Assembly: GCA_964016885.1 (NCBI GenBank)
Contig: OZ024740.1
Span: forward strand, 338,768,001-338,832,000
DNA from: Eledone cirrhosa
Taxonomy: Eukaryota
Length of the DNA: 64,000 bases
Reading direction: 5' to 3'
Position 1 is the first letter of the stretch, and each line of letters begins with the position of its first letter. The notes under the pieces are model-generated. The model was given only the letters and a program-made list of their open reading frames with translations, made no database searches and was not told the DNA's origin. A program made the translations under genes and the position numbers. Below are positions 2,963 through 37,742 of this stretch, in pieces.

Positions 2963-3013
<51 letters not shown>

Positions 3014-3014
3014 G

Positions 3015-3071
<57 letters not shown>

Positions 3072-3090
3072 GTATATATATGATATACTG

Positions 3091-3151
<61 letters not shown>

Positions 3152-3558
3152 CCAAAATTAAGATAAATTAAATGAATTTAATCTAAATCGAAATTGTGGG
3201 TGTCATGTTATAATGGCATGCGCCACATCACCTGGAAATAAGCTCAAAGATAAATCCGAGCATTTTATAATAACTAGAAATTGATTAACATATAAATATA
3301 CATGAATAATCACAGGAGATAATTTTTACACGCGTGTAACCACGCATAGCTAGTTTGGGTAATAATTAAATTTATACCTTTAAGTATGATTAACCTTCCT
3401 TGTATATATCCCATTAAAGAAATATATTTCACCAATTAATCAGATGGTAAGTCACGGAAAGTGGATATTATTGGATTGTCAACAAGGAAGAATAATAATG
3501 TCCAGCTATCCATCCTTACACAACGAGTTTAAATCCTCATCTGGCCGCTACCACGTGT

Positions 3559-3610
<52 letters not shown>

Positions 3611-3752
3611 CCCAAGGGCGGTGCCCCAGCATGGCCTCAGCCGGATGGCTGAAACAGGTAAAAGAGTAAAAGAGTAATATATAATCAGTTACAATAGTGA
3701 CATATGTAGGTACTTAAGTTTCATTGAGTTGCCACCACAACTCATTCACCCT

Positions 3753-3878
3753 GCCATATTGTGATGGAATACCCATCACAATATGGCAGACAGAATGTTG
3801 TAACCTATTCTACATAACTCGTCCTACAGACTGAGTGCTCTAAACCCTTGGATATTTATAGCACGTTTCTACAACAAT
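3753..3878 (+). mobile_element. Short non-autonomous element (family C) ending in a (TATG)n tail, 5'-truncated
   Basis: Near-identical to the reverse complement of 17311-17437 and followed by (TATG)n. Confidence 0.7.
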
Positions 3879-3911
3879 GTATGTATGTATGTATGTATGT
3901 ATGTATGTATG

Positions 3912-3942
<31 letters not shown>

Positions 3943-4355
3943 GGGAGAGATGACCCCTTAGCCTTTGTCAAGGCAGAATTCTAGGAGAAGGAAAACTCTG
4001 ATATAACGCCTGCAACCCTGATGGTATCCAATAATGTTGACTTGTTCTTCTTTTTGGTAAATATCATCTTGGTTAAGAGAGTGGGACTGGCTTTGTGCAG
4101 TGCCTTTGCTCACTATAAAAGCTTCACGGCACAGGCATTGCTTTATATCTGGAGATCTCTCTGCACTTGTCGTCACATGGTGCCATGTGCCCAGCATTAT
4201 GTGTCAATAATTGTCACAAGTGTAGTGTTTGTATCAGAGTTAACAAGTCACTGGCTGGACTTAAAAAAGTCACACTTGTTCAGCGCAGCGGTAGGGGTTC
4301 TCCTACATGGATATAAAGTAGTGGCCGTACTCGAAAACGAGTTGGCAGCCACCAT
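3943..4355 (+). mobile_element. Internally deleted RTE derivative (family A), 5'-truncated
   Basis: Carries the RTE 5'UTR-like motif CTAGGAGAAGGAAAACTCTGAT, a relic terminal C2H2 finger, a 3' stem-loop CTCG-AAAA-CGAG and a (TATG)n tail. Other copies at 9295, 15793, 16579 and 37330. Confidence 0.8.
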
Positions 4356-4427
4356 GTATGTATGTATGTATGTATGTATGTATGTATGTATGTATGTATG
4401 TATGTATGCATGCATGTATGTATGTAT

Positions 4428-4778
4428 GCGGGGACATAGAAATAGTCGGGCCGGACACCCGATCGCGCGGTTAAACCACTGGGAGTGAAGGACCCCTAGC
4501 CTTTGTCAGGGCATTCTTCTAGGAGAAGGCCACTCAGGAAACTGGGATAACTCCGATATAAAACCTGCGGCTCAGTAGTTACCGATGATGTTGATCTTTT
4601 CTTCTTTTCGGGTTATAGCTACTGTCGCTCTGAGAGTGGGATTGGCTCAGTGCACAGTCTTTCCTCTCTTTAAAAATTATCTTTACGTACAGTCATTGCA
4701 CGGTAGAATTAATTAATAATTATTAATAATGGTACAGCGTGCAATGGCCATACTCGATAACGAGGGGGCAGCCATCAT
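4428..4778 (+). mobile_element. RTE-derived non-autonomous element (family B)
   Basis: Starts GCGGGGACAT, shares the CTAGGAGAAGG block with family A, and ends CTCG-ATAA-CGAG...GCAGCCATCAT(GTAT)n. A second copy lies at 15382-15732 on the minus strand. Confidence 0.78.
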
Positions 4779-6890
4779 GTATGTATGTATGTATGTATGT
4801 ATGTATGTATGTATGTATGTATGTATGTATATTTTCAGGGTACTTTTCCAAAAGCAATGCGATACTATAATGATTTCAAAAAGCCCAAACAATGCATACA
4901 AAGAATTTTAATGTTTTAATTTTTATACACATTGTTTGGGGCTTTTTTATCATTTGAAATCCACAGAATTAACAAAGAAGAACAAGACAACGAATGGAAA
5001 CAAATCACAACGAAAAATGTTTTTAAGGGGAAACCTTAAAAAATTATTTTTTTAAAAATAAATATACAAACGAAGGACACAAAATAGATTTGGGCAGTTC
5101 CGAGCCCTACCAACGGTACTGCTGGTCCATCCAGGGTCACAGCGTCTGTCATAAGCCAAACGCTCCCCAAAGAAGTGAGAGACGAAAGACAAACAATAAT
5201 TTATAGCCGTTAAGCTACACAACATATACGTTTGTTTGTGAAGCTAGGGAAAATATACAATTTTACAAAAATTAAAAACAACCGGAATTGCCTCTTCTCT
5301 GATATATATTTAAAGCAATTAAACAAAAAAAGCTAACATTTATTAAGAAGCTAGTATCAAGAGACAAATTACCATTAGATATTTATGCAGTATGTATGGG
5401 TGGTTGGATGGATGAATGAATGGATGGATCCGTAATTCCTGATGGATAGAGACATACGCAAGCGGTTTTAAAAGTCTGGTGGAGTCCATTGTCAGTCAAC
5501 ATCCGAACACAGTCGATTTCTTCCATATGAGAGAGTGAAAAATAATAATAGAGGAATAATCGCCATCAGTACTGATCTAGTACTTTTTTGTCGAGCTCAA
5601 AAGGATGTAAAGCAAATGTGACGTCGGTGGCTCCTGAGAACCCAAACGAATACCATTAAGCATTCTATCCAACATTCTAACGACTTGGTAAATTCGCCAC
5701 CTATGAGATATTTATATTAATAATTAAATATCGTTAATGAAGCTTATAGTTGAAATGAATTCAGAATCAAGCTAGATAACAGGTGGAAGCACAGCTATAA
5801 TCTCTAAATAGGTGTTTAGATTAATGATGAAAGGTTGATAACTCTCTAATTCTATTAAAAGAAATTTAATTAGACAGATTGTAAATAAAATCTTATTCGA
5901 AATATGAAAAGAGTTACAACTTTTATATGCATTGATTGAGTCATGTCAGTATTTTCACCCACCTTAGTCTACATTTAAAACTATCTAGTGACACTTAATT
6001 CTTATAGATATATTCTCAAGCTCATGGAAAAATATTTGTCAAAGAGATCAAGGTGACCCATAAAAGAAAGGGTCATGGCACCCTTTACAAATGTACAACT
6101 TTCAAAATGACTGTTTAACTACACCCCTGTTTCCCCCCTGAAAAAAATATTTTCCCGTTTTTTTTCTTTTCTTAATCTCATCCATCTTCCTATTTCTTCT
6201 ACTTTCCATTCTATCTCCTAAGAAGGATTAATGACAAGAACTTTTCCTATTATATCAAGTGTTAAACTAGTCTGTATCATCATTGTATTGTTCTCCTCTT
6301 TCTTTCTCTGCTGACTTTTCCTATATAAATATATAGTTATAAAGGGGTGATATGCATGAAAGCAACCAATTGATACAGACAATTGAAGACCATTATTGAA
6401 GCGGATTCGTACAACCTCATGTCAAGAGGTTGTAGAAGAACGAAAGTTCACTATTCAACAGCTGTTTATGTATCTCCTCATGCTGGAGACTGAAAAAAAA
6501 AAAAAAGACTCGGCAAATGTGTCGTCGCACTAAAAATCGGTGTAAATCAAGCTACTCTGTCTTTCTTTGGCGCAGCAAAAACACCTTTTCAATTCTGTTT
6601 GCTGGGGTCGTGTGGGGGCATACATTTGGGGTTCTCTACGGTGGAATGAGAGAGAGGAATAACGGGGCAGATAGCGTTAAAACTTTTCATGGGCTGGTTC
6701 ACACTGTTACTGTTAGCCTCTGCATACGCGCATACATACATACATACATACATACATACATACATACATACATACATACATACATACATACATACATACA
6801 TACATACATACATACATACATACATGATGGCTGCCCCCTCGTTATCGAGTATGGCCATTGCACGAGAAGAAAAAAAAAAAAAAAAAAAAA

Positions 6891-6935
<45 letters not shown>

Positions 6936-6936
<1 letters not shown>

Positions 6937-7176
6937 CCATGAAGTCAAAGTGATCCCGATTGTCATAGGCGCACTGGGGACTATCTCCAAAAGTTTCCAG
7001 GGATGGTTAAAGAAAATCGGCCCCTTCACGCTTTTTGGAACGCTTCAAAAGGCATGCTTGCTTGGAACAGCAAGAACCCTCCGATACGTCCTGAATATCT
7101 GAGGCTGCAGGTAGTGGCTTGATATTCAATCCAACGGACTTTCCAGTTAACCAACATCAATGACTGAGATTCAAGG
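6936..7176 (+). mobile_element. 3' fragment of a Dong/R4-type RLE retrotransposon within (TAA)n
   Basis: 6941-7102 translates EVKVIPIVIGALGTISKSFQGWLKKIG...LQKACLLGTARTLRYVLNI*, an RLE C-terminus. TAA repeats flank both sides. Confidence 0.8.
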
Positions 7177-7479
7177 AATAACAATAACAATAATAATAAT
7201 AATAATAAATAAATTAAAAAAAAAAGAAATAAAAAAAAGAAATATATATATATATATATATACATACATACATATATACATACACACATACATACACATA
7301 CACACACATATACACACACACATACATTAATAACAATAATAATAATAATAATAATAATAATAGCAATAATAATAATAACGACAACAACAATAATAATATA
7401 CATATTCATATATATATACACACACGCACGAACATAAGCATATCTACACACACACACATACACACACACACGATAGCAA

Positions 7480-9120
7480 CTAACAGTGCTGCGATCGAAT
7501 GTGGCTTTTTAGCCCAGCCAATGATCTAAAATGTCTTGCACAGAGTCGGCAACCAAAACATTTACTGGGAATAGTCGGCTGTGGTTGGAGTTCGTGTACT
7601 TTTGCATGTCGCTTGAGCCCTCCTGCTGATTTACATTCTCTACCACATGTTTGGCAAGCATCATGAGTAGCATCTCCAACAGCAGCCTGGTAGTCAACCA
7701 CTGGTCTTACTTTATGACTGCGAAGATGACTTTCGAGTCCAGCTTTGCTTAGGCAGAGTCTCGCACAGACGCTGCATGTCAGCACCATAGGAGGACCCTC
7801 GCCGTCTGGAAGTGCAACAGCAATGCCCTTCCTCACATCCCGCTTTACTTTCTCGTGTGCGATTCGAGATGCCTCAAAGGCAACTTTTCCCACATATACA
7901 GTCTTTCTCCATTTATTACGATCAGCAGCAATATTTTTCCATGTATCAGCAGAGATGTTAGCGTCTTTCAGAGAGGCTTTCAGGGAATCCTTATACCTCT
8001 TTTTTGGTTTATGTGGCGGTCGTTTTCCTTTAACCAACTCTCCGTAAAAGAGTTGTTTTGGTATTCTAGAATCCTTCATCCTGGCAAGGTGACCACTCCA
8101 ACGGAGTCGTTGCTTAATCACAAGAGCTTCTATACTGTCACACATAGAGCTTTCCAAAAGTCCCTCCAGTGAACGCCGTGGATCCGTCTGAGACACATCT
8201 GATGGAAACGCTCCAATTGCTTAAGGTGGTGTCGATATGTGACCCAGGTCTCGCAGGCATAAAGAAGACAAGAGAGTACACATGCCCTGTACACCTTTAC
8301 CTTTGTCCTCCTGCATATGTCTCGCCGACCCCAGAGTCGCCTTTCTAGCTTTCCGAAAGCATCACTTGCTTTCCTAATCCTAAGTGAGATTTCACTGTCA
8401 AGGTTGCCGTATCGATTGACAGTGCTTCCCAGGTAGACAAACTGATCAACCACTCCAAGTCGTTTGCCATACACATAGATGTTTGGTTCAGTATACTGCT
8501 TACTAGGAGCAGGTTGGTACATGACGACGGTTTTCTTGAGACTGACAGTCAAACCCAGGGCAGTGCAAGCGTCAGAAAATGCATTCAAAATGTGCTGCAT
8601 ATCACTCTGTGTGCGCTACAAGATCGCAATCATCTGCATACAAGAGGTTTCTTATGATTGATGTAAATACTTTTGTCTTCGCAGCAAAGCGCCTGATGTT
8701 AAATATGCTGCCTGAGGTTCGATATCGGATGTAAACACCATGCTCGCAATTCCTGAATGCAATACAGAAAACCATTGCAAAGTATATGGCAAACAGGGTC
8801 GGTGCTGGAATATCCCCCTGTTTCACTCCATTTTTTACTGAGATAGGCTCCGACATGTTACCTCCGACATTAACCCAAGCCTTCATGTCGTCATGGAAAG
8901 ACCTAACTAAAGCAAGGAACTTATCAGGGCAACCAAGTTTCTGGAGAACCTTCCATAATGCATCTCTGTTGACAGTATCGAAAGCCTTTGTCAGATCTAC
9001 AAAAACCTGATACAGACCCAAGCCTTGTTCAATGCACTTCTCCTGGAGCTGTCTGGCTGAGAAGATCATATCAGTAGTGCCGCGTCCAGCACGAAAACCA
9101 GATTGACTTTCAGGAAGAAC
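7480..9120 (-). pseudogene. RTE-clade LINE reverse transcriptase, 5'-truncated and disrupted, with three C-terminal C2H2 fingers
   Basis: Motifs [55 protein letters not shown] and RLRWSGHLARM are spread over three ORF pieces separated by a stop and a frameshift. Confidence 0.95.
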
Positions 9121-9294
9121 ACAATACATACATACACACATACATACATACATACATACATACATACATACATACATACATACATACATACATACATACA
9201 TAATACACACATACATACATACACACATACATACATACATACATACACACATACATACATACATACATACATACATACATACATACATACATAC

Positions 9295-9587
9295 ATGGTG
9301 GCTGCCAACTCGTTTTCGAGTACGGCCACTACTTTATATCCATGTAGGAGAACCCCTACCGATGCGCTGAACGAGTGTGACTTTTTAGTCCAGCCAGTGA
9401 CTTGAAAACTCTGGTACAAACACTACACTTGTGACAATTATTGACACATAGTGCTGGGCCCATGGTACCATGTGACGACAAGTGCAGAGAGATCTCCAGA
9501 TATAAAGCAATGCCTGTGCCGTGAAGCTTTTATAGTGAGCAAAGGCACTGCACAAAGCCAGTCCCACTCTCTTAACCAAGATGATAT
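9295..9587 (-). mobile_element. RTE derivative family A, 5'-truncated
   Basis: Matches the 3' half of 15793-16402, with CATA arrays on both sides. Confidence 0.8.
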
Positions 9588-9695
9588 GCCATACATACAT
9601 ACATACATACATACATACATACGCGCATATATACATACATACATACATACATACATACATACATACATACATACATACATACATACATACATACA

Positions 9696-9727
<32 letters not shown>

Positions 9728-9730
9728 CAT

Positions 9731-12700
9731 AATCAGTCAACGCGATCAGTCGCATATTTTGGCATGGGAGACTATTTATTAAATTTAAAATGAATACTAT
9801 CTCCGACAGTAATGCCACAACTACAGCCAGGTTGAATAACTGGTTATTCTTCTAACTATCCCTTCTGAAGACACCTTTTATTCGAATTCGTAGATATATC
9901 CGACTAAATACATAATTCATTTTACAAGGATTTGCTACAAACAGCATGGCTGAACACAACATCAACAACAAAATTAAGGAAGTATCGAAGACAAATAGCA
10001 AAGAAGGTAATCAAACTTTATTCAGTTGTAGCTACAGAAGAAACCGAAATTATAAATCGCATTTCTCTTGGAGTTGCGAACTTAATGATTTATTTAATTG
10101 TTATAAAATGGCAAAAAAAAATCTCTCCATTGGCTATATGAATAGAATGAAGCTACACTGGGACGAAATGCACCCAGAGCTAAATTATTTCACAGCGAAA
10201 CAATTACGCCAACAAGCGACGTTTGTCCCCCACAACAAACATGGAATCAATAACACGTGCTGCAGATCGCCATGCTACTAGACTTCCTAGCAGCGAGGTC
10301 GAACAGCGCCTTGAAACAACTATGCCTGTAAAAAACTTGACACCACCTGTACCATCTAAGTCTACCTCGAATGCTGAGGAAAACACTATCAATAATAATA
10401 ATAATCGAAGAAATAATAATAATAATCGAATAAATGTGACACCACGTATACCGTCCGAGTCTACCTCGACTGTTGTGGAAAATACTATCGATAATGATAA
10501 TCAAAAGTATAAACAATTGAAAATTTCCCTCAACGAAATCTTCTAGAGAGAAATTAACTCATGTATAAACATCTCTCTTGCTGAACGTGTTAAAATGACA
10601 ATGGTGAATAAAAAACCAAATAATGAAATACTACGTGTTATTGACGAAATAGGGGATGAATATTTACGACGGATAAACACCCCAACATTTTGGCAAATCA
10701 GCGCCTGTTTATATGCCTTAGCAACGACAGTGAAGCATTATCTTGGTGATAGCAGAGATATTAACACGAACAAAACACCACCAAAAATACCATCATATAA
10801 ACTAAAATAGAAAAAAAGAGTGCTGACCTACGAAAAACAATAGGACATGTGACAATGCTCCTTACATGCAAACAAACGCAAAAAAACCTCACTCCTCACC
10901 AACAAAGAGCGAAAAATAAAATAGAGACGATGTTTGGTAACAGCAGAATCAGAACTCTCCAATATAAGCTGATCACCCTCAAACAAGAATTGAGAGCTGT
11001 TAGCGAAAAACGCCGATACCTGAAGAAGGTAGACGAGAGAAAAATGCTTAATAAAAGATTCAGACGAAACCAAACATCACTCTATAGAGATATGAAGGGC
11101 AAAATAATAAGTGTCACTGAGGCCCCATCCCAGAAAGACAGATTCCTTTTGGAGAAAAATATGGGGTGAAAAGAAGAATTTCAACCAAGATGCAGTGTGG
11201 CTAAGAGAAATCCGAAACAACTATTGCTCCTACACTACAACAAAAACATACGAAATAAGTGAGGGTACCCTTGAGACTGTGATAGGAAAACTCCAAGATA
11301 AGAAAACACCAGGAAGAGACATGATTGTCGGCTACTGGTACAAAAAAACTAATATTCTATCGGAGGTATCTTACTGACCTCTACCAACAAGTTCTTAAGG
11401 GAGATACACTTATACCAGAATGGTTGACATTAGCACAAACGTTACTGGTCCCCAAGAACAAAGACACCCACTTGGCAGAAAACTACCGACCCATTGCATG
11501 CCAGAATCTGATGTATAAGATGTATACAGCCTGCCTGAACCTATTCCTCCAAGATCACTGTGAAAATAATAACATCATCACAGATGAACAAGCAGCTGGA
11601 AAGAAAAGGGTTTGGGGATGTGCTTAACAACTCCTAATCAACAAAACTGCGATGTCGGAGGTGAGACAACTTAGGAGGAATATGACTACAGTCTGGCTGG
11701 ACTACAGGAAAGCTTTCGATTCTGTTCCCCACTCTTCGATGATAGAGGCCCTCCAAATTGCTAAAGTCCCAGACATTATTGTCAGAGCCATAGAGAGGCT
11801 GTCTTCTTCTTGGGCTACTATCCTAAGGTTAAAGACAGAGAGGGAGGACTCTATTTTCACTTATAAAATAAAATATTTCAGGGGTATATTTCAGGGGGAC
11901 AGTCTCTATGTGATATTGTTCATCTTGTCATTAAACCCCTTGTCCTTTCTGCTCAAGAAATGTGAGGGATACATCATTGGCTCACAGGAGGACAGAAATA
12001 CGAACCTAACCCATAACTTCTTTGTGGACGCTCTGAAACTCTATGCCAAGAACATGGATGGAATGAAGAAAAATCTTGACCTGGTTACAACGTTCTCAAA
12101 GGATATAGGAATGGAGTTTGGCCAAGATAAATGCACATACATGACTGTAAAGCGGGGAAAATCAACATCCCAATCTAGCAGCATTGTCATCAATGGTCTA
12201 ACTGTTTCACCGATATCTGATGAGAACTGCTACAGATACCTGGGGATAGATGAGAACATATCCTATAATGGTATCTGTAATAAAGAACGCGTAACCAGGG
12301 AATACTACACCCGATTAAGAAAGATCTGGTCATCGGAACTCTCTGCGCAAAACAAAACAGTGGCTCACAATGTGTTTGCTGTGCCTGTCCTTACACCAAC
12401 GTTTGGAATATTCAATTGGACGATAGATGAAATCCGAGCAGTTGATGTTGCAACTCGAAAAATACTGAGCAACACCGGAAACTTCCACATCAACAGTGAC
12501 ATAGACCACCTTTACTTGAAACGTAAGCAGGGAGGCAGAGGCCTAACATCAGTCCAGACAACATTTGAATGTCACATCATATCTCTCCGACAACATCTAC
12601 GAACCTCGAAGCGTAGGAGCCCGCTTCTCGAGCAAGTCTATCTGCATGAAACAGATAAGATCATGAGAGTTGGGAAGGAACTCTTTGAGAGATATTGCCT

Positions 12701-13812
12701 GTGTGATAATCAAAAACTCACACCCAGGGATATCGCTCAGCAGTATCGCAGTGAATCCATGGATGAAAAACTGCATGCCTAACAGCAAAAAATCATGCAT
12801 GGATATGTTGCCAGGAAGCTCCAGAGTGAGGGTAATATAGATAAGGAAAGTAGTCTATCTTGGACCAACAACCGCTATATTGGCTCCCACTTTGAAGGAT
12901 ACGCTTTTGCAATCCAAGAACAGGAGATTAGCACGAAATACCTGATTCACAAAAGAGATAGGGATGCAGGCAAAAGACCCAGATGTGATAACATGTGCAG
13001 ACTCTGCAGAACTAACATCGAGGATATCACCCATGTCATCAGCAGCTGTCCAAAGATGTCATCGCGGTACTATCTACCTATGAGGCATGATATAGTGGCC
13101 AAAACACTGTACAATGCAGTTCGTAAAAAAGATAGCCCCGATAATAAACACATTAAAAGCTACAACAATGTGGAAGACATCCATGTACATAATATGAAAG
13201 AGTACTGGTGGAAGGTTCCAAAAAACCCCAATAAAATGCAGGCATAACAGACCAGATATGATATGGGACAGGGAGAAGAAAACATGCACAGTAGTGGAAA
13301 TTAGCTGCCCAGCAGAAGCCAATATAATATCAAAGATTCGTGAAAAGGAGAATATCTATGCAGAACTGATGAGAAATCTGCAGATACTCCACCCTGATTA
13401 CACCTTCAGATTTATGCCTGTGATTGTTGGGGCACTGGGATATGTTAGTAACTGCCTCAATACAAATCTTGAGAAGCTAGGCTTCACAGGAACAGAAAGA
13501 ACACAACTAGTTAGGAAACTACAAGTACAATCCATTAATGGAAGAGTAAAAATATGTAAAACATTGCCAAGACTTTGCATCTAATAACTGCATATACACA
13601 TGTACAGATACAGAGCATATACACATGCACACATACAACTCAAAACGTCTACATCCACACATACAATAACATCCATATCTACACATGGATGCATACATAC
13701 ATATCTACCTAGTTGATGTTGTGTAAATTCCAATGAGCGAGTCTTGTGTCTATGTTAGAAACCGACTCTCTCTCTATTGGTAAAACTTTGTGAAATTATA
13801 AAACCAGAAGAA
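9731..13812 (+). mobile_element. Near full-length R4/Dong-type (RLE) non-LTR retrotransposon, disrupted
   Basis: ORF pieces span 9946-13584. RT motifs: YRPIACQN, WLDYRKAFDSVPH, GIFQGDSL, FFVDAL (degenerate DD), YRYLG, GGRGL. Also a CCHC finger CRLC...HVISSC, RHD, and a PD...VVEISCP endonuclease. (CATA)n lies on both flanks. Confidence 0.93.
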
Positions 13813-13906
13813 CATACATAAATACATACATACATACATACATACATACATACATACATACATACATACATACATACATACATACATACATACATACATA
13901 CATACA

Positions 13907-14224
13907 TAACACAACTAGTTAGGAAATTACAAGTACAATCCATTAATGGAACAGTAAAAATATGTAAAATATTCTAAAATTTCTGCTTCTAATAACTGCA
14001 TATACACATATACAGATACAAATCATATGCACATGCACACATACAACTCAAAACATACACATGCAATAACATCCATACCTGCACACATGCATGTATGCAG
14101 ACATGCATACATATCTACCTAGTTGATGTTGTGTAAATTCCAAAGAGAGAGTCTTGTGTCTATGTTAGAAACCGACTCTCTCTCTCTATTGGTAAACATT
14201 TGTGAAATTATAAAACCAGAAGAA
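13907..14224 (+). mobile_element. 5'-truncated copy of the same R4-type element
   Basis: Repeats 13501-13812 with substitutions. Starts in CATA and ends AAACCAGAAGAA-CATACA. Confidence 0.88.
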
Positions 14225-14289
14225 CATACATACATATATATACATAGATATATGCACACACCTAAAAAGTCTAAAGTCTGTTTTAAGCC

Positions 14290-14547
14290 AGAAGGTTCAT
14301 TTGGCCGGTGCTTATCCCGGTTTCATGGCGGGAAGCGACTGAGAGTACAAGACTACCCTGGACAGGACGCCAGTCCATTGCAGGGTTAAACCCCCAGCTA
14401 TTGATGGTACTCATTTTTCAGCTGACTATACTGGAGCAACGTGAAATGAAGTGTTTTGCTCAAGAACACAACATGCAGCCCAGGAATTGAACCAAGACAT
14501 TATGATAATAAGCACAACACCCTTACCACTAGGCCACGTGCCTCCAC
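14290..14547 (-). mobile_element. tRNA-derived SINE (second family)
   Basis: The minus strand has an A box TGGCCTAGTGG and a B box GGTTCAATTCC. Degenerate relatives lie near 30085-30205, 36820-36975 and 47735-47850. Confidence 0.65.
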
Positions 14548-14574
14548 AGCATGCATACATACATACATACATAA

Positions 14575-14976
14575 TGGCTGCAACACGATTTCGACCAATT
14601 CTATCGCTTGATACTTAAGAAAATGTCACATATCAAGTGATGCCTGTGCTTGAAACTTCTTTAATTGAGGAAAGGCTTTGCACGGAACCAATCCCACCCT
14701 CTCAGCATCCAATGCATTTACCCCAAAAGTAGAACTGGTCTACATCATTGGATTGCAGGTGATCTTCTCCCAGAGAAATGTCGTAATGATGACGAGGGGG
14801 TAGGGTGGTCTCACTCCAATGCTTCCCTAAAAAAAAAAGAATTAAACATTATTGGATAGCCGTTGACTCTCATGAGTTCCTCCACCCTTTGACATGTTTT
14901 GTTTTTTCATTCCGTAGGGGGCGATAACTTTTCATGGGCGGGTTCACGCTGTCACCGTTAGCCTCTGCCTACACGC
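14575..14976 (-). mobile_element. Diverged RTE-derived element (family D)
   Basis: Shares blocks with families A and B (GAGTCAACGGCTATCC, CTGGGAGAAG, GAGAGGGTGGGATTGG). Its 5' head matches 6683-6730. CATA lies on both flanks. Confidence 0.6.
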
Positions 14977-15156
14977 ATACATACACACATATATATACAC
15001 ATGCATATATATACATACAAACGTACAAACATGTAACCTGCATACATACATACATGCATGCATACACTCATACATACATACATACATACATACACTCATA
15101 AATACATACATACATACATACATACATACATACATACATACATACATACATACATA

Positions 15157-15372
15157 CAACCCGCTTGGACCAATGTATAACTGAACTTGGATTTTCGGAC
15201 AAAGAGGGCAGCTCCCTAATTCATAGTCTATAAATGGCTGCGATAGCTGGCACCTTCAAAATTTGCAGAACATTCTTGCGATTCAAGGGATGACAATTTC
15301 TTTTCTTTTACAACCTTGCCACCAGGAAGGTGGCCGGTCAAAAATATACTCGAAATTAAGAGAAAGAGATAG
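15157..15372 (+). mobile_element. 3' fragment of a second R4-type family
   Basis: Near-identical to 18047-18265, with CATA on both flanks. Confidence 0.85.
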
Positions 15373-15381
15373 CATACATAC

Positions 15382-15732
15382 ATGATGGCTGCCCCCTCGT
15401 TATCGAGTAAGGCCATAGCACTATATACCATTATTAATAACTATTAATTAATTCTATTGTGCAATGCCTGTGCATGAAGATATTTTTTAAAGTGAGGAAA
15501 GACTGTGCACTGTGCCAATCCCACTCTCTGAACGACAGTAGCTATGACGCGAAAAGAAGAAAAGATCAACATCATCGGTAACTAAAGAGCCGCAGGTTTT
15601 ATATCGGAGTTATCCCAGTTTCCTGAGTTGCCTTCTCATAGAATAATGCTCTGACAAAGGCTAGGGGTCCTTCACTCCCAGTGGTTTAACTGTGCGATCG
15701 GGTGTCCAGCCCGACTATTTCTATGTCCCCGC
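15382..15732 (-). mobile_element. RTE derivative family B
   Basis: Reverse-complement match to 4428-4778. Confidence 0.8.
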
Positions 15733-15792
15733 ATACATACATACATACATACATACATACATACATACATACATACATACATACATACATAC

Positions 15793-16402
15793 ATGGTGGC
15801 TGCCAACTCGTTTTCGAGTACGGTCACTACTTTATATCCATGTAGGAGAACCCCTACCGATGCGCAGAACGAGTGTGAATTTTTAGTCCAGCCAGCGACT
15901 TGAAAACTCTGGTACAAACACTACACTTGTGACAATTATTGACACATAGTGCTGGGCCCATGGTACCATGTGACGACAAGTGCAGAGAGATCTCCAGATA
16001 TAAAGCAATGCCTGTGCCGTGAAGCTTTTATAGTGAGCATAGGCACTGCACAAAGCCAGTCCCACTCTCTTAACCAAGATGATATTTACCAAAAAGAAGA
16101 ACAAGTCAACATCATTGGATACCATCAGAGTTGCAGGTGTTATATTGGAGTTTTCCTTCTCCTAGAATTCTGCCTTGACAAAGGCTAAGGGGTCATCTCT
16201 CCCGGTGATTTTGGATGGCCATTGACTCTTAACAGTTCCTTTGCCCTTTGACAGGTTTTATTTCTAGTCCTGCAGAATGTCCAAAGTCACCCTCCACGCC
16301 AAGAAACCTTGGTGGGGTTGCCAGTTTAGTCGCCAACGACCCGACCATGAGACAGGTTGTACTGGGATACATGTTACCAGTAGCACCATCTGGTGACCTA
16401 AC
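15793..16402 (-). mobile_element. RTE derivative family A, longest form (about 610 bp)
   Basis: Comprises a 5'UTR-like part, a terminal zinc-finger relic, a 3' stem-loop and a TATG tail. Confidence 0.82.
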
Positions 16403-16522
16403 AAACAATATATATACATATATACAATAGATACATATATATATACATACACACATACACATGCATACACATATATATATACATACATATGCACACATAT
16501 ATATACATATACATACACATCT

Positions 16523-16561
<39 letters not shown>

Positions 16562-16578
16562 CATATGCATACATACAT

Positions 16579-17186
16579 ATGGTGGCTGCCAACTCGTTTT
16601 CGATACGGCCACTACTTTATATCCATGTAGGAGAACCCCTACCGATACGCTGAACGAGTGTGACTTTTTAGTCCAGCCAGCGACTTGAAAACTCTGCTAC
16701 AAACACTACACTTGCGACAATTATTGACACCTAGTGCTGGGCCCATGGTACCATGTGACGACAAGTGCAGAGAAATCTCCAGATATAAAGCAATGCCTGT
16801 GCCGTGAAGCTTTTATAGTGAGCAAAGGCACTGCACAAAGCCAGTCCCACTCTTTTAACCAAGATGATATTTACCAAAAAGAAGAACAAGTCAACATCAT
16901 TGAATACCATCAGAGTTGCAGGTGTTATATCAGAGTTTTCCTTCTCCTAGAATTCTGCCTTGACAAAGGCTAAGGGGTCATCTCTCCCGGTGATTTTGGA
17001 TGGCCATTGACTCTTAAGAGCTCCTTTGCCCTTTGACAGGTTTTGTTTTTAGTCCTGCAGGATGTCCAAAGTCGCCCTCCTCACCAAGAAACCTTGGTGG
17101 GGTTGCCAGTTAAATCGCCAACGACCCGACCATAAGACAGGTTGTACTGGGATACATGTTACCAGTAGCACCAACTGGTGACCTGA
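16579..17186 (-). mobile_element. RTE derivative family A, longest form
   Basis: Direct repeat of 15793-16402 with scattered substitutions. Confidence 0.82.
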
Positions 17187-17310
17187 CATACATACATACA
17201 TACATACATACATACATACATACATACATACATACATACATACATACATACATACATACATACATGCATGCATGCATGCATACATACATACATACATATA
17301 TACATATTTA

Positions 17311-17478
17311 CATTGTTGTAGAAACGTGCTATAAATATCCAAGGGTTTAGAGCACTCAGTCTGTAGGACGAGTTATGTAGAATAGGTTACAACATTCTGT
17401 CTGCCATACTGTGATGGGTATTCCATCACAATATGGCCGCTACCGGGTGTCCATTCCGACTATGTCTATGTCCCCGCG
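17311..17478 (-). mobile_element. Short element family C with a GCGGGGACAT head
   Basis: The head is shared with family B and the body matches 3753-3878. Confidence 0.7.
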
Positions 17479-17530
17479 CATATACATATACATACATATG
17501 TACATGTGTATATACATATTTACACACTTT

Positions 17531-17706
17531 GGGATGGCCGTTGACTCTTATGAGTTCTTCCGCCCTTTGTCAGGTTTTGTGTTTTGTCCTGCAAGGTGTC
17601 CAAAAATCACCCTCCTCCCCAAGTAAACTTGGTGGGGTTGCCGGTTTAGTCGCCGACGACCCGACCATGCGACAGGTATTACCAGTAGCACTCAAGAGTG
17701 ACCTGA
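17531..17706 (-). mobile_element. Diverged 5' module of the family A lineage
   Basis: Aligns to 16999-17186 with substitutions and an internal deletion. Confidence 0.7.
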
Positions 17707-17735
17707 CATACGTACATACATACATACATACATAC

Positions 17736-18265
17736 TTCGGAAAACAAAATTAACAACAAACGAGGAAGAATATATTGAGACAGATGGCACTAAGGAATAC
17801 TGGTGGAACTTGAAAATAAAAACTGCCACCAAATTAAAGCACAACCGGCCTGATATTGTAGTTTGGGACCACACATTGAAAACGTGTTCTGTTGTGGAGA
17901 TCAGCTGCCCAATTGATGTAAACGTTGTCAGAAAAATACAGGAGAAGGAGGACATCTACGGACCATTGATGAGGAGTTTACAAATCCAGTATCCAAGATG
18001 CACCTTTAGCTTCATACCCATCATTATTGGTGCTACGGGTTATATACCAACCCGCTTGGACCAAAGTATGACTGAACTTGGATTTGCGGACAAAAAGCGC
18101 AGCTCCCTAATTCATAGTCTACAAATGGCTGCGATAGCTGGCACCTTCAAAATTTGCAAAATATTCTTGCGATTCAAGGGATGACAATTTCTTTTCTTTT
18201 ACAACCTTGCTACCAGGAAGGTGGCCGGTCAAAAAAATATACTCGAAATTAAGAGAAAGAGAAAA
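17736..18265 (+). mobile_element. 3' portion of a second R4-type family (RLE endonuclease domain plus 3'UTR)
   Basis: ORF 17810-18184 reads KHNRPDIVVWD...VVEISCP...IPIIIGATG. CATA lies on both flanks. Confidence 0.9.
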
Positions 18266-18339
18266 CATACATACATACATACATACATACATACATACAT
18301 ACATACATACATACATACATACATACATACCATATATAG

Positions 18340-18525
18340 GTTGAATTTTGACATATGACGGAAAATGACAACTGACGGTGTTTCGCGTCGTAGTTGAACC
18401 AAGGTGAAGTACCAATATATTTTCCCAAACAGAAACTGCATCAAAAGAAGATTGAGGTTACCGTTTGGTGGTTGGCATGAGGAATCATCCGCTATTAGGT
18501 TTCGAATAAAACCTCATTCTGAGCT
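18340..18525 (+). pseudogene. Mariner transposase relic
   Basis: Translates FPKQKLHQKKIEVTVWWLA*GIIRY*, resembling the mariner FPKPxLHQKKxMVTVWW motif. An upstream ILTYDGK resembles IVTCDEK. Confidence 0.75.
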
Positions 18526-19244
18526 GTAATATAATGTTTTAGAGTCGATGTTTATAGACATTTAATATTTATAATAAAAATTTAATATTCTAGTTTTATA
18601 GCTTTTTAATGTACTGTATATATTTGTGATCATTGAAAGGACAGTAGAATGCCCCTTTTCACATTGGAAAGAATTTCTCTGGACAGGAAGTAGTGGAAAG
18701 GTTTTGTGGATATATAACTGTTCAAAGATTTTGTTGGGATTGTGCAATTAATAAGAGATGTGAGCGTGATGAGCGTATATTTAATCAAGGTACGAAATGG
18801 GGGGGGGGGGGGGGGGGTAATTACTGGTTAGAAGAAAACTAATTACCATTGTATTAATTACTAGTCACGACGTATTTCTTCTGCTAGTGCATGACTTTAA
18901 CGGAAACACGAGCATTCCTGGGTTCTTTAATTCATCACGAATATATACTAAAGACTCAATATGTGGTATACTGCGAAATGGTCAGTTGAAGGTATTCCTC
19001 ACCCTAGGCTCAGGAACAGATCTAATCAAACAGGCCGACGTTGAGGGGTGTTCCAGACGTCACTACCCTATCTTTTATTCAAAATATTGTATATATGACT
19101 ACATCATCTAGTGTCTCGACTTTTTAAGACAGCAAAGTATGATTTAAGAGAAATTTGGGCAGCCTGTTGATTTGAGGCTACTTTCTTTGGAGTTTCACAC
19201 ACTGATTTTGCTATTATCAGGGGTCAAATATTTCAGTATCCAGC

Positions 19245-20172
19245 TAACCAACCAACCAACCAACCAACCAACCAACCAACCAACCAACCAACCAACCAAA
19301 TCTCCAACCAGCCTGCCAACAACCCAATCAACCACCCAACCAGCCAGCCAGCGAGCAACCCAACTAAGAAACCATTCAGTTAACCAACCAACCATCCAAC
19401 CAACCAACCATCCAACCAACCATCCAACCAACCAGCCAACCAGCCAACCAGCCAACCAGCCAACCTGCCAACCTGCCAGCCAGTATCCCAGCCAACCATG
19501 CACCCAACCATCCAACCAAACAGTCATCCAACTAATCAACCAACCAACAACTGAACCAGCCAGCCAGCCTGCCACACAATCAAACGCCCAACCTAACAAA
19601 ACAACTTCGCAACTAACTAGCCATCCACCCAGCCAGCCATCCAAACAATATACCACATATCCAACCAACTGCCCAACTATCCAATAAATCGTCTACTAAT
19701 CTGCCAACCACCCTGCCACCAAACTAGCCAACCAGCTTTCCAGCCACATAACCATCGAACTAACCAACAATCATAAAACCAGCCGGCCAACCAATCGAGC
19801 ACCACACAACAACCCAGCCATCCACCCAATCAACCAATCAACAAGCCATCCAAACAACTAGACACACAATCAACCAACGACACAAGCACCCAACTATCCA
19901 GCCAAACCTTCAACCAACTAACCAACCAACCAACTAACCAACCAACCAACTAGCCAGCCTACCAGCCAGTCAACCTGCCCCCCCCCCCCCCCCCCCCTCC
20001 CCCAAACCAACCAACCTCCCCCCAACCACCCAACAGCCACCCAACCAACAGCCACCCAACCACCCAACAGCCACCCAACCAACCAACCACCTGCCACCCA
20101 ACCACCTGACCAGCTACCCAACCCCCCAAAAGCCACCCAACCAACTAGCCTACCAGTCAGCCAGCCTGCCAA
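19245..20172. repeat. Degenerate (CCAA/CCAG)n microsatellite
   Basis: Direct inspection. Confidence 0.9.
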
Positions 20173-22928: not shown

Positions 22929-23089
22929 TATCTATCTCTTTCTCTATCTAGCTGTCGTCTGTTCTACAGTGTGGATGTAATTCACTTCGCGCAGAAGTTT
23001 TGTTCAAATTTATTACGGAAATTTTGTGAGTTCAAATTTAATTTTGATACCATTGTGTAGCTTGACCCCCCCGTCTGAACTGTCAGACG

Positions 23090-25139
23090 GTGGGTCAGCT
23101 CATCTTTACCCCTCCTAGAGGTGAAAAACCTGTTTTCTTAAAATTTTGTGGCAAAAAAAAAAAAAATGTTTTCAATCGTCTGACAGAAATGTTAAACGAA
23201 GCGAACGAAAATAGTGGTGGGGGGACAGCGGTAAGAGTTGTCAGCTCGCACGCTTTAGTCCCCCCTTCCTTCCCAACTAACGTCATAGAGAAGGAAGGAA
23301 AAATTAAAATAAAAACAGACGAATCTGCGGAGAAAAATGACGAAAACACAAATCTGGACATGGATTCCAACAACGAAAAAAAAAAATTTGAAAAATTGCA
23401 TGACAATACTAACACCACAAACAAAGACACAACAAACACAAAAATAACATTTGAAAATAACACCATAACAGAAAGCAAAGCAGACGACAGAGTCAAGATT
23501 TCGTTTGCACAAACAACAAAGAAATCTTTGACTTATATACCCGAAAATATTTCAGATGTGGCACGAAGAATCACAGACGCCAAACAATACATAAGTGAAG
23601 GAGAGAATGGTATTTTATCGGTAAAAATGTCTCAAGAATTCACCAAAGACATTGAAAGTCGAACGGTCGTATTCCGCACCATCAACAACACTACAAAAAA
23701 ACCTGAACAGCCTTCTCAAGCAGATATCAAAACAGTACTCACAGAAGTACTTAATGAAACCACTTTCATAAGAAAAGACAGACTGTATGGAATCCTAGCA
23801 ATTATCATGAAGAACGAATCGGCGGCAAAAAAATGTGCTTTGTCACCGATTCGTTCGAAAAATTTTACCTTTTATCCATCTTATATGGGTAAAAGAACTC
23901 AACGCATATGGCTGGATGCAATGATGCCAGATGTGGACTACTGATGGCTCATAGCTGGCTTCATCAATCCAGTGAATGACAACGTGATTTCCATTGGGAA
24001 AACCACAGGCAATGCGTTCAGTGGAACAGGTATAGAGCTGGGAGTGCAAATGAAGCCTGAACGCATCGCCCAAATACCCGACAGAATCCTATTAGAGGGC
24101 CACGGGTATATAAACATTAGCGTGGAGGGGAGAAGGCCGTCCTGTCATATCTGTGCAGGCAGAGGGCACCTGAAGGCCGCTTGTCCCCAACTCAACAAAA
24201 AGAAAACCCTGCTACCAACACCAGCTCCACCACCACCACCACCACAACAGATAAACAAACAACAAAACTCAGTCCCACCCAACCCATCCCTCAGTAAAAC
24301 CACACCACCACCACAACACAAACAGTCACAACACATTACCCCAAAACAAAATACAGGCCCACCCAACCTCTCACTCAATAAAACAACACAACCACCGCAG
24401 ACACAACACACAACACAGTCTAACATAGTGACATCCATCTCCCCCACAAAGAAAACCAACACGGAAACATTACCAGCAAACATACCTCTTCCCTCCAACA
24501 CTGAAGATAACCCAACGAATTCGGAGGAAGAAACGGAGTCCTTCAGACAGATTAAAAGGAAAAAAAAGAAAACATGTGCAAAACACACAAGGCCAAACAA
24601 CCCCCACCCAAATCTCAACACAATCCAACAAAACAGAAAACACCCCTCCAGCAACAAACAAAACCAAACCTGCCCCTCCCCTCTTCGAAACACTCACACC
24701 ATCCGAAAAAAAGACATTACACTATACCTACATCAACAGAAACAATAATAAATTAAATGAACTCATAAACAATAATCCTTCGGTACAAACCGAAGGTGTA
24801 AACTTTGTTTCTTCAGAAAACTACCCACATTTAAAATGAATAAAGATCCCAATGAACCTCTACCAAAAACTAAAAAAGGATTTTAAGGAGGACGTAGGAC
24901 CACCCTCTGTCAAACCCATAAACCGCGTCCTACTAAAAAGCTCTCCCCCTCCCCTTCCCCTCCCCAACACAACTCCAAACACCCCAACCCCACCACACAC
25001 TGACGACCCCACACCACCACAAGACACCCCTTCACCCAACATCCCGACCCCATGGAAGTCGTGCAACCCGAACCCCGGGAAGCGGAAAGGTAGGTCTCTA
25101 CACTCTCCTTTGGCTCTGCCGCCCACATGGATGTGTTAA
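23090..25139 (+). pseudogene. LINE ORF1 (gag-like, zinc knuckle), disrupted
   Basis: CHICAGRGHLKAAC knuckle. In-frame TGA at 23942 and 24837 and a frameshift in the A-run near 24565. The end overlaps the ORF2 start by 13 nt. The true start codon is uncertain. Confidence 0.8.
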
Positions 25140-28100
25140 GAGTAGGATGTTTGAATGCACGTGGCCTGGGCTCAACTTGGAAGCAAGCAAAGCTTCTAAA
25201 TGACCTCAGGTCATGTAGTATAAATGTAATGGTTATCTGTGAGACTCGAATCAGCGTCGTGCGGCAGCTGGCCCCCACCTTCGATGACTTTGAGGTGCAT
25301 GCATCTCTCTGTCAACCTGGAGGTGGGGGTGGGGTTGTCGTACTGCTGCAAAAACACCTGGGTCTTGCCGTACAGGTTGTGCACTCGGACCCGGAGGGTC
25401 GTTTGTTGGTGCTAGACGTTGGCAGTAGTGAAGGTGCAGCCTTGAGACTGGTCGCCGTCTACTCCCCTTCCGGAGCTGAACGGCCCAACTTCTTCCAGCG
25501 TTTGGAGACTTTTCTGGGAACGTCGCGTTCCCTGCTTCTAGCGGGGGATTGGAATGACATCCTAGATGCACGTTGGGACTATGCAGGAGCATGTCCTAAT
25601 AGAGGGGGGTGTAACTGCCTCAAGGGGTTACTCGACCGTTTTAACTTGGTCGATAGATATCGACTAGATTTTCCAACTGTGCCTACCTGGACTTGGAGAA
25701 ACCACAGTGGTCAATCTAGATCGTACTTAGATAGATTCTTAGTTAGAAGTAAGGATAGGGACATATTAAGCTGTCCAGAAATGCGCACGGTTGGCTACAC
25801 GGATCACAAATTAGTGACCTGCGTAGTCAATCTCGAGAAAACACATAAACAGGGTCCCGGTTACTGGAAACTTAATTTGTCTTTACCGGCAAAAGATACT
25901 TACAGAAACCGGATTAGCAGATTATTTAAGGAGAGGTTGACGGGTGCAATCGTCAACAACCGATGGTGGGCATCTCTCAAAAGAGAGATTAGAACAGAAT
26001 CAATAAGTTATAGCAAGATGTTAGCTGCCGATAGGAATAGAAACGAGAAAGAATTAACAGGTAAATTAGAAGAGGCAATCAAGAGCGAAGATGTGGCCAG
26101 AGTGCTGGCATCAAGGACGGCCTTGAACCAGTTTTTCGATGCAAAGCACGAAGGCTGCGTCATTCGAAGTAAAATACGTGCTCTAAGTAATGAGGGGGCC
26201 AAAGCCGTTGGCTGGGCCCGCGTGACAGAAGCTAAGAGTGGAAATCGATCCACCATCCGGTCGTTGCAAGACGAAGATGGACGGGTGATCCGGGAGCCTA
26301 AGCAGATGTGCGAGGCCTTTCAAAGGCACTTTTCCCGATTGTTCGGGGGAGGCGAGGGTCCGGGCGGGGACGTGGATTTCGGTCCATACCTCGACGGCCT
26401 TCCGCGTCTCTCGAGCGAAGAGGCAGAGTCCTGCGAGGGACCAATCTCGGCTGATGAGATCGGAGATGCGCTGAGCCAATGCAGCAGACGCAAATCTCCA
26501 GGTCTCGATGGTATACCTTACGAACTTTATTTAGCAATGCCGGTCTTCTTCTCCGAACTCCTCGAAGCGGTCTACTGCAATTGGCAGCAGAACGGGAGAA
26601 TTCCTTGTTCTGTAGCCAAAGGCGTAGTCACGCTGGTGAGGAAGGACGAGAACAAGGGAGATAGTATAAATAATTTTCGGCCCATAGCCCTGCTAAACAC
26701 AGAGTTAAAGATTTTGGCCAAGGTGTTAGCAAAGAGGTTGGCGCTTGTCGTGGGTGGCCTGGTGGGAGATGCGCAGACATGTGCTATTCCATCCAGGTCC
26801 ATTCACGATAACCTCCACCTCATGCGATACATCATAGAGAGGGTTGGCAACAAACCCGGCTTCGGTGGGGCCCTGATCAACTTGGATCAGTCTAAGGCCT
26901 TCGATAGGGTCGACCATGGTTACCTGGATGCGGTGCTAGCGGCGGCTGGGTTCGGTCCTGTTTTCAGAGGCTGGATCACTGCCTTACATAGCAACCACAT
27001 CTGTTCTAGGATCAAGGTGAACGGCTACCTTTCGAAGCCGTTCGAAATCACACGACCCATTCGACAGGGGTGCCCTCTCTCCTCCCTTCTGTACGTATTG
27101 ACTCTCGAGCCTTTACTGAGGAAGTTGGAGTTGTTGCAGGGTATCCCCCTGGAACAAGAACTGAGCAAAGCGGTGTCGGCCTACGCCGATGACGTAACAG
27201 TAATGGTATCGACCGACTCGGAGATCGAGGCGATCGGTACTTTACTGGAGGATTACGAAAGGTTGTCAGGAGCGAAACTGAACCGGGAAAAATCCATCGG
27301 GCTGCAACTCGGAACGTGGAGAGGCAGACCGATGCCTCCCGACGGTGTCGTCGGACACTGGACGGAGGGCCCGGTAAAGTTGCTTGGGGTCTGGTTTGGA
27401 CCGGACCTCCAGGTGGAAAAGAACTGGAACTAGGTTACGAACAAGGTGTTTGCACTAACCCAGAAAAGGGCCAAGTGTAAGCTGTCCCTAAAAGGCCGGG
27501 CGGAGGTGGCGAACATTTACATAGCGTCCGTCACTTACTACCGCCTGACTGTCGTGCCTTGCCCCAAGGAAACACTCACCACCATGGAACGCATGCTCTT
27601 CCAATTTCTTTGGAAGAAGCGCCCTCCTATGGTGAAAAGATCCATCTGCTGCCAACAACCTTCAAAAGGAGGGCTGGGGATGCCGTGGTTGATGATGAGT
27701 AGGCACGCATTAAGGCTACGGCACCTACAGGTATTCCTCACTGGTCAACCGGTGTGGGCTCCGTTCGTGAAACGAGCCTTTCCGAGACTCGTCTCGCTCA
27801 CCGAGCTACAGTCCTGGGTCAAGCAAAGATCCGGAAAACTGGGAGACTGGCACACTGAATGTGCTCAGGCGCTCAGGGCTCTCTGGCAAGCGGGCCAGGC
27901 CATCGGTGGAGAATCCACCTCATCATTCTATAGAGGGCTGGTGGCTAGCAGGGGCGATGACACCCTTGGAGAGTCGCTGGACATGGAAGAAGACGAACTG
28001 GCCAGCCTGTTCGGTAGGACTTTCGGCCCAGGACCAATGGACAACTTCCAGAAGTCACTGGCCTGGCAGTGCTACCGAGGGGCTCTACTCGTTCGAGAGA

Positions 28101-28564
28101 GGCTCTACAGACACGGGCGCCCGGGCAGGGATCCCTCAAAAAAGATTTGCCCTAGATGCGTGCGTCACGAAGAAACCGTTGCGCACGCATTGGTGCAATG
28201 TCCGGGCGTGGCTGATCTGTGGGGCTACGCCGAACGACTGCTGTCGTGGGTGGCGCCGATTCAATAGACCGCCGAGTCCGTGATGACAATCAAGCCGCCT
28301 CCCCTCTTCACAAAGGAAGCAAAGGCGGCTTTGCTGTGCGTAATAGCCATGTTGAAAGAAGTTGTTTGGTGGACACGATTGAAAGGTCTGAGGTGAGGCA
28401 ACTTCCTCTCTGGCCATAGTCTGGTCTACTTCTTCCGATATCACTTCGGAAGAAGGATAAGAATGGAGAGAGAGGTGCTTGGCCACAGGCAGTTTTATGA
28501 AAGGTGGGTGATAGTGGCGAGAATGGCTCGTGTAAATGGGCCTTCTCTGTATACCATCCTGTAG
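25127..28564 (+). pseudogene. LINE ORF2 (AP endonuclease, reverse transcriptase, C-terminal zinc motif) with in-frame stops
   Basis: Motifs LNARGL, ICET, AGDWN, YLDRF, TDH, PGYWKLN, KSPGLDG, FRPIALLN, DQSKAFDRV, RQGCPLS, SAYADD, GGLG and CPRC..EETVAHAL..C. Stops at 27431 and 28265. Confidence 0.95.
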
Positions 28565-37329: not shown

Positions 37330-37742
37330 ATGGAGGCTGCCAACTCGTTTTCGAGTACGGCCACTATTTTATATCCATGTAGGAGAACCCCTACCGATGC
37401 GCTGAACGAGTGTGACTTTTTAGTCCAGCCAGCGACTTGAAAACTCTGGTACAAACGCTACACTTGTGACAATTATTGACACATAGTGCTGGGCCCATGG
37501 TACCATGTGACGACAAGTGCAGAGAGATCTCCAGATATAAAGCAATGCCTGTGCCGTGAAGCTTTTATAGTGAGCTAAGGCACTGCACAAAGCCAGTCCC
37601 ACTCTCTTAACCAAGATGATATTTACCAAAAAGAAGAACAAGTCAACATCATTGGATACCATCAGGGTTGCAGGTGTTATATTGGAGTTTTCCTTCTCCT
37701 AGAATTCTGCCTTGACAAACGCTAAGGGGTCATCTCTCCCGG
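37330..37742 (-). mobile_element. RTE derivative family A, 5'-truncated
   Basis: Matches 15793-16205 and sits in a degenerate CATA tract. Confidence 0.82.

Follow-up and report, generated by a model that had tools for sequence, protein, structure and literature searches.

Retrotransposons of the R4/Dong clade have a Myb/SANT-like domain at the N terminus, without zinc fingers (PMC7998251), and the published target of Dong is (TAA)n (PMC3812793, PMC7998251). Among long interspersed nuclear elements (LINEs) with an apurinic/apyrimidinic endonuclease (APE), the available parts of two reports give site-specific members in the Tx1 and R1 clades only (PMC6007223, PMC13295347). Dong-R4, with 5 families and 1,129 recent insertions, and RTE are among the most active LINEs of octopus, and the accessible text of that report gives no target for either (PMC13282606). 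Here we analyzed a chain of RTE-lineage and Dong/R4-like (R4) elements, the island, at positions 3676 to 18330 of a 64,000-nucleotide stretch of Eledone cirrhosa DNA (GCA_964016885.1, contig OZ024740.1, positions 338,768,001 to 338,832,000, forward strand), which we call the window. In keeping with an octopus, a homologue in Argonauta was 50% identical. An earlier note had proposed that tails made by RTE elements create the (CATA)n/(TATG)n target of R4 elements and of further RTE copies. We found that the overall pattern is real and genome-wide and that the target is likely shared and pre-existing, not built by RTE. The reading that we favor, with a probability of roughly three in four, is that the RTE lineage and two R4 families, A and B, independently target pre-existing (CATA)n/(TATG)n and would do so by nicking different strands, as their junctions suggest.

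Relation to described elements

Bombyx Dong, DongAg, the snail DongBg, and the ostracod Dong1/2 resemble families A and B in their single frame with an N-terminal domain, reverse transcriptase (RT), CCHC knuckle, and restriction-like endonuclease, and also in inserting into microsatellites; this genome has TAA-type families as well, one of them in the island. What sets A and B apart is their (CATA)n target and their place, in a quick midpoint-rooted tree, on a branch separate from the TAA families. RTE-2_OV of Octopus vulgaris, compared by its description only, shares with the LINE in the island an endonuclease, RT, a terminal C2H2 zinc finger, and a 3' untranslated region (UTR) that is mostly microsatellite; no target preference, target duplication, or short derivatives are mentioned in the available portion of its report (PMC9115989). 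Bov-B and plant RTE elements have microsatellite-like 3' ends and duplications that start with A and then T, as stated for Bov-B in PMC13295347, but their sites, in the accessible text, are dispersed with a T stretch about 10 nt away, whereas here alternating repeats lie on both sides (PMC6007223, PMC13295347). Bipartite non-autonomous RTE elements, made of the 5' UTR and 3' end of a LINE with no frame, have been described (PMC5786205); family N2 of the island, in which a LINE 5' UTR is joined to that LINE's final 41 nt, has this known structure and, as far as the available text of that paper goes, differs only in target and stacking. Waldo (ACAY), Mino (AC), Kibi (TC), Koshi (TTC), and Togen (TG) are also microsatellite-specific non-long-terminal-repeat elements, and the ACAY target of Waldo overlaps the CATA repeat; they belong to other clades, and the accessible parts of the reports describe no second superfamily on the opposite strand (PMC3812793, PMC4640811).

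Dong microsatellite targeting and bipartite RTE derivatives are already known. In a literature search we met with no description of a Dong specific for CATA or of an RTE bound to microsatellites; supplements, Repbase, Dfam, and a Zenodo octopus library may name these targets. A CATA-specific Dong branch beside TAA families in one genome makes a target switch directly testable, and an RTE bound to a repeat would break the stated confinement of site specificity to Tx1 and R1 among APE elements.

Strand polarity across the genome

Because copies found as best matches favor young elements, we took an unselected sample of 160 stretches of 10 kb at fixed spacing (1.6 Mb; the random sample below). 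It contained 489 polarized tracts of at least 2 units; 81 mixed tracts were set aside, and tracts within elements or less than 60 nt from a stretch edge were excluded. The expected polarity was seen at 20 of 20 R4 ends and 43 of 45 RTE ends, a non-random orientation genome-wide. With best matches and the random sample combined, 3' flanks were CATA in 56/57 copies of family A and 38/39 of family B, with none reversed. The microsatellite was also present at 5' junctions, as had been foreseen: CATA was found at 36 of 46 for family A and 23 of 27 for family B, with one reversed, and all 20 full-length 5' ends of family A abutted a CATA-polarized tract. N1, the commonest RTE family, favored TATG in 70 of 78 5' flanks and 73 of 78 3' flanks and CATA in none. 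For comparison, 8.4% of 20,000 random 16-mers alternated purine and pyrimidine at 85% or more, and a transfer RNA (tRNA)-like short interspersed nuclear element (SINE), used as a control, touched alternating tracts at 1/13 5' ends and 1/7 3' ends, near that background.

In the island, the claim that every RTE-lineage element reads TATG on its sense strand was borne out for the RTE pieces, but the element at 3753 that had been counted with them is a foldback that showed no RTE relationship. The four inserts of families A and B do have CATA on the sense strand and so run antiparallel to the RTE elements. They are not the whole R4 set, since a fifth R4-clade insert (6936-7176) lies in (TAA)n, not in CATA.

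Target or tail at RTE ends

The 5' flank of N1 alternated in 63 of 78 copies against the background of 8.4%, at odds with the lack of a sequence-specific target given for RTE in the accessible part of PMC2887409; the 3' flank alternated in 72 of 78, and 20 of 25 truncated copies had an alternating 5' flank. TATG around N1 was no denser at 3' than at 5' (density, 0.46 versus 0.54). In 75 of 78 copies the 3' flank began with AT, and it ran on as TATG or TA matching the 5' flank (rho 0.50 and 0.54); where N1 sits in pure TA (L215 and L269), TATG stood on neither side. Informative duplications of N1, at least 10 bp long and not pure repeat, numbered 13, against 3.1 ± 1.6 in 200 shuffles (maximum, 7), and six of the 13 were 12 bp long. 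On the strength of these flanks, we regard the repeat as the target of N1 and not its tail. The presence of the array on both sides of the RTE elements, together with a 3' "tail" that mirrors the local target as a duplication of about 12 bp, undoes the causal claim that RTE tails create the target of R4 and RTE. For R4 target duplication, own pairs of flanks were no better than shuffled ones (5.9 versus 6.2 nt for A and 15.6 versus 14.7 nt for B).

The RTE LINE and its short derivatives

After the frame, 29 genome copies of the LINE had a 3' UTR made up of TG, TA, TTA, and T runs; in 22 copies the match that came next after the 3' UTR was the 41-nt terminus, which in the island copy is 6826-6866. 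The LINE has the single APE endonuclease and RT frame of RTE elements, with the RT identified by Pfam and the endonuclease-like N-terminal frame recognized by eye from motifs in copy L139. We take the LINE at 6826-9122 to be an RTE from its architecture, its likeness to the description of RTE-2_OV, and known RTE motifs. Positions 3-298 of N2 were 89.6% identical (297 nt) to the LINE 5' UTR of copy L391 and were joined to the terminal 41 nt of the LINE, so that N2 is fully bipartite and frameless. N1 was 69% identical over 229 nt to the LINE 5' UTR, and N1, N4, N5, and N7 matched part of that UTR at 69-75% and had a related 3' end. The families have short ATC or ACC repeats at their ends, ahead of AT. 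A terminal stem-loop was significant for N1 (z=-3.7) and not significant for N2 and the LINE (z=-0.5). The 5' truncation points of the LINE mostly adjoined TATG or TA runs.

Four of the 29 LINE 3' UTRs contained an antiparallel TAA-type Dong element and two contained N1. A preference of TAA-type Dong for RTE UTRs was considered and rejected, as 4/29 UTRs are no excess over 6/55 TAA arrays of at least 5 units in the random sample. We found no insertions within the CA-rich 3' UTR of family A itself. In all three LINE 5' regions that were fetched (L389, L390, and L391), the 3' end of another element lay within the (TTA)n of the 5' UTR; the insert in L390 presumably encodes a Tx1-like C terminus. 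At 6448-7775 of L254, a 57-bp tandem repeat has more than 20 copies, and its unit matches part of the N1 5' end.

The Dong/R4-like families

Family A is present in the island as one full-length copy, with an N-terminal domain, RT, CCHC, restriction-like endonuclease, and CA-rich 3' UTR, and one fragment; family B is present as two fragments. Family A gave an RVT_1 and a weak zf-RVT match, and CCHC and RPD..E motifs were read in the translations, which together give the RT, CCHC knuckle, and PD-(D/E)xK restriction-like endonuclease of the R4 clade. PDB matches of the protein were to R2 proteins only. The N terminus was 34% identical over 41 amino acids to the N terminus of Bombyx P0050 in a sequence alignment (E=1e-4), and no zinc finger was found in the single R4 N-terminal frame scanned. 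The (TAA)n target of Dong in the strict sense was found for the fragment at 6936-7176 alone, A and B being in CATA; in the random sample, AAT runs stood 3' of 7/8 copies of a TAA-type family.

In a quick, midpoint-rooted tree of C-terminal regions with 113 rows, no named R4/Dong row, and no outgroup, for which 14 of 120 homologues had been dropped because of their length or because a motif was missing, A and B fell in a 14-row clade nested in a 40-row clade, on a fully supported branch separate from the TAA families of this genome and from a Bombyx protein. A metagenome scan returned 78 loci, and the flanks of 26 were read. Among the six with a best segment of at least 43%, one (L311) had CATA at both ends, two (L312 and L320) had CTTA at the 5' end, two had no repeat, and one ended in ATG units; of 20 loci at 30-38%, 17 had TAA runs at the end, and the other three had ACA, four ATAC units, and no repeat, respectively. 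L311 has an intact frame of 1,179 amino acids that is 41-52% identical to A and B. Since so distant a relative is flanked by CATA, CATA targeting is likely a property of the lineage and not a product of the RTE of this genome. In a separate observation on L175 and L194, L175 was seen to hold a junction between family B and family A inside the frame, a possible template switch between families.

Ages and abundance

Copies differed from their family majority by a median of about 4% in A, 1.5-2.2% in N1, 1.5% in B, 0.4-1.9% in the LINE, and 4.6% in N2 (6 copies). The family A copy at 9733 (2-4%) is older than its N1 neighbor (0.4%). Judged by divergence, family A is older than N1, and RTE and R4 activity overlapped. 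The dating that had been suggested as a check of the nesting order therefore gave no one-way order of RTE and then R4.

The random sample contained 44 true 3' ends, a mean of 0.275 per 10 kb with a variance of 0.63, and five of the 160 stretches had at least 3 true 3' ends, against 0.45 expected under a Poisson distribution. The island has 12 true 3' ends in 14.7 kb, which makes it a large example of a structure that is common. Extrapolated from the 44 ends in 1.6 Mb, some 80,000 copies would be present genome-wide (3.0 Gb), a scale of relevance to repeat hotspots and to the use of microsatellite markers in these animals.

Mechanism and alternatives

In target-primed reverse transcription, the start of the junction would give the primer strand, here CATA for RTE and TATG for R4. 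RTE junctions begin with AT, which would put the first nick on the CATA strand and leave a sense strand that reads TATG; a palindromic (TA)n would permit either RTE orientation. R4 junctions begin with ACAT, as would be expected from a nick on the TATG strand. A single TpA step, nicked on one strand by RTE and on the other by R4, would account for both registers, give or take 1-2 nt because of microhomology. Every insertion would leave repeat on both sides, duplication and slippage would renew the array, occupied arrays would likely gain more copies and grow into chains, and repeats inside the LINE's own UTRs may offer fresh targets to N1 and TAA-type elements. The self-extending array of the earlier note is thus plausible by way of target duplication and RTE UTR repeats, not through a tail made for R4. 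It is possible, though doubtful, that an RTE of the APE type and a Dong branch of the restriction-like type have come by convergence to cut the same TpA step of (CATA)n from opposite strands, with the RTE duplications of about 12 bp and UTR repeats renewing targets for RTE itself, two Dong types, and a Tx1-like element. If so, microsatellite specificity would extend to RTE as the third APE clade, and the Dong series of TAA, CATA, and CTTA would be a natural set for finding target-reading residues.

The model in which RTE elements synthesize TATG tails, and thereby make targets for R4 and later RTE copies, is already largely refuted, and we consider it very improbable. It draws on adjacency: in the random sample, an R4 3' end faced an RTE 3' end in 3/11 tracts versus 18/478 others (p=0.009), 8 of 19 tail-to-tail pairs were spaced about 11-19 nt, several with partners from old RTE families, and the accessible text of one report has RTE elements generating microsatellites in Lepidoptera (PMC2887409). 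The enrichment is found at the other side too, however, with an R4 5' end facing an RTE 5' end in 5/9 tracts versus 17/480 others (p=1e-5), and for arrays of at least 4 units neither excess was significant in that sample. With all genome loci pooled, a tail-to-tail placement was seen for 19 of 87 R4 3' ends and a head-to-head placement for 24 of 69 5' junctions (p=0.10), so head-to-head pairs are no rarer; R4 and RTE cluster together, but not at the tail side. Moreover, of the 11 R4 3' ends in the random sample, 8 have no RTE tail opposite, and neither group touches 439 of the 489 polarized tracts. The equal presence of the array 5' of RTE, the copying of the local target by the "tail," the greater age of family A, and the CATA targeting of a distant relative tell against the model as well.

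Base pairing offers another account, in which both groups carry a read-through 3' repeat in their RNA that sets site and strand in place of endonuclease specificity. RTE tail repeats have been proposed, in the available text of PMC6007223, to guide cleavage or priming, and the 16-nt mode after R4 ends, the R4 copies that have CATA only at 3', and the short terminal ATC or ACC repeats before AT would all fit. Yet N1 within pure TA arrays adds no TATG, and the CATA target persists despite a protein divergence of about 50%, and sister elements lie by CTTA, which suits specificity set by the protein; we think this account unlikely. That insertion is unspecific, with the pattern arising from selection or from repeat expansion after insertion, seems barely conceivable: microsatellites are abundant, as the 8.4% of alternating 16-mers attests, but young copies show base-precise junctions and near-complete strand polarity, and the SINE control has no such pattern.

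Several observations weigh against independent targeting of a pre-existing repeat, the reading we prefer. Tract polarity was reversed at two RTE 3' ends of the random sample, and the sole full-length RTE 5' end seen (L391) comes after a T run, not TATG. Ten of the 46 "5' junctions" of family A were ties, some being internal breaks and some truly having no CATA. The random sample held only 11 R4 3' ends. Slippage and decay after insertion may blur the flanks and could inflate the correlation between the 5' and 3' sides. Spacers had a median of 24 nt tail to tail versus 62 nt head to head (p=0.02), and 14 of 95 R4 3' flanks (A and B) were 16-17 nt of CATA, with or without an RTE beyond; these short spacers and the 16-17-nt mode could come from the footprint of R4, from a tail that R4 brings along, or from a real preference for the RTE side.

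Layout of the island

Comparison of the sequence with itself, its frames, and a library assembled from real copies resolved about 19 element pieces between 3676 and 18330, of which 12 are true RTE or R4 3' ends (Table 1). CATA/TATG runs of at least 4 units numbered 18 there versus 2 across the remaining window. The chain of about 15 elements reported earlier is real, but it takes in a SINE that does not target the repeat and is broken at 4831-6680 by 1.85 kb of other DNA. As the plus strand reads TATG at 3877-4830 and CATA at 6731-18330, this interruption makes the region two islands of opposite polarity.

Table 1. Pieces of the island, in window coordinates
Positions	Strand	Feature	Support
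3676..3876	+	Foldback element, one arm partly deleted, no detectable RTE relationship	Hairpin z=-6.6
3877..3941	+	(TATG)16 array	
3943..4353	+	Non-autonomous RTE family N1, 5'-truncated	95% to N1
4429..4776	+	Non-autonomous RTE family N2, full length	LINE 5' UTR + last 41 nt of LINE
6681..6730	-	N4-like 5' head, 3' part not found	91% over 43 nt to N4
6826..9122	-	RTE LINE, 5'-truncated: RT, C2H2 zinc fingers, microsatellite-rich 3' UTR	Pfam RVT_1, zf-C2H2
6936..7176	+	TAA-type Dong-like 3' fragment, antiparallel within (TTA)n of RTE 3' UTR	
9297..9587	-	N1, 5'-truncated	0.4% off family majority
9733..13811	+	Dong/R4-like family A, full-length but broken, CATA both sides	
13900..14223	+	Family A 3' fragment	87% to full copy
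14263..14549	-	tRNA-like SINE, class assigned by eye, no repeat targeting	57 matches in 1.6 Mb
14574..14975	-	Non-autonomous RTE family N4, older	72% over 114 nt to LINE 5' UTR
15157..15369	+	Dong/R4-like family B 3' fragment	14 nt from N2, tail to tail
15384..15731	-	N2, full length	92% to copy at 4429
15795..16407	-	N1, full length	
16581..17192	-	N1, full length	95% to copy at 15795
17314..17437	-	Near-identical inverted copy of 3753-3876	99.2% over 124 nt
17520..17705	-	5' portion of an older element related to N1, 3' end absent	84% over 150 nt to N1
17736..18264	+	Family B 3' fragment, then (CATA)16	1% off family majority

The foldback element at 3676-3876 matched neither the LINE 5' UTR nor the N families in sequence comparison and is not a bipartite RTE. 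Its relatives are 20 long inverted repeats followed by TA/CA runs, and around the family (3676-3876 and 17314-17437) such runs occur in either polarity. The second copy is joined to an N2-like 40-nt head at 17438-17478. The two inverted segments are 99% identical and 13.5 kb apart, and their next best genome match is 88-91%; the shared sequence starts at a perfect hairpin, and this points to a template switch or conversion that was recent and local. We rejected the view that 15384-17437 had been duplicated in inverted form to give the plus-strand island, because the 99% identity is confined to the foldback piece, N1 being at 95% and N2 at 92%.

ARAGORN found no tRNA gene, and an Rfam scan of 3000-19000 with general models, no custom one among them, gave no ribozyme among 72 matches, all of which were microRNA look-alikes driven by microsatellites and fell under their gathering scores. 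Elsewhere in the window, a 615-bp tandem repeat with about 4.5 near-identical copies occupies 1-2760 (starts at 1, 616, 1231, 1846, and 2461), a degenerate (AACC)n array of about 215 units lies at 19246-20104, and a 355-copy satellite with a 10-bp unit and 91% matches lies at 32373-35927. A two-frame LINE with an endonuclease-like start at 23066-28264 (+) resembles the insert in L390 and is likely of the Tx1 type. A single N1 outside the island, at 37332-37742, has CATA tracts on both sides with the same polarity as in the island.

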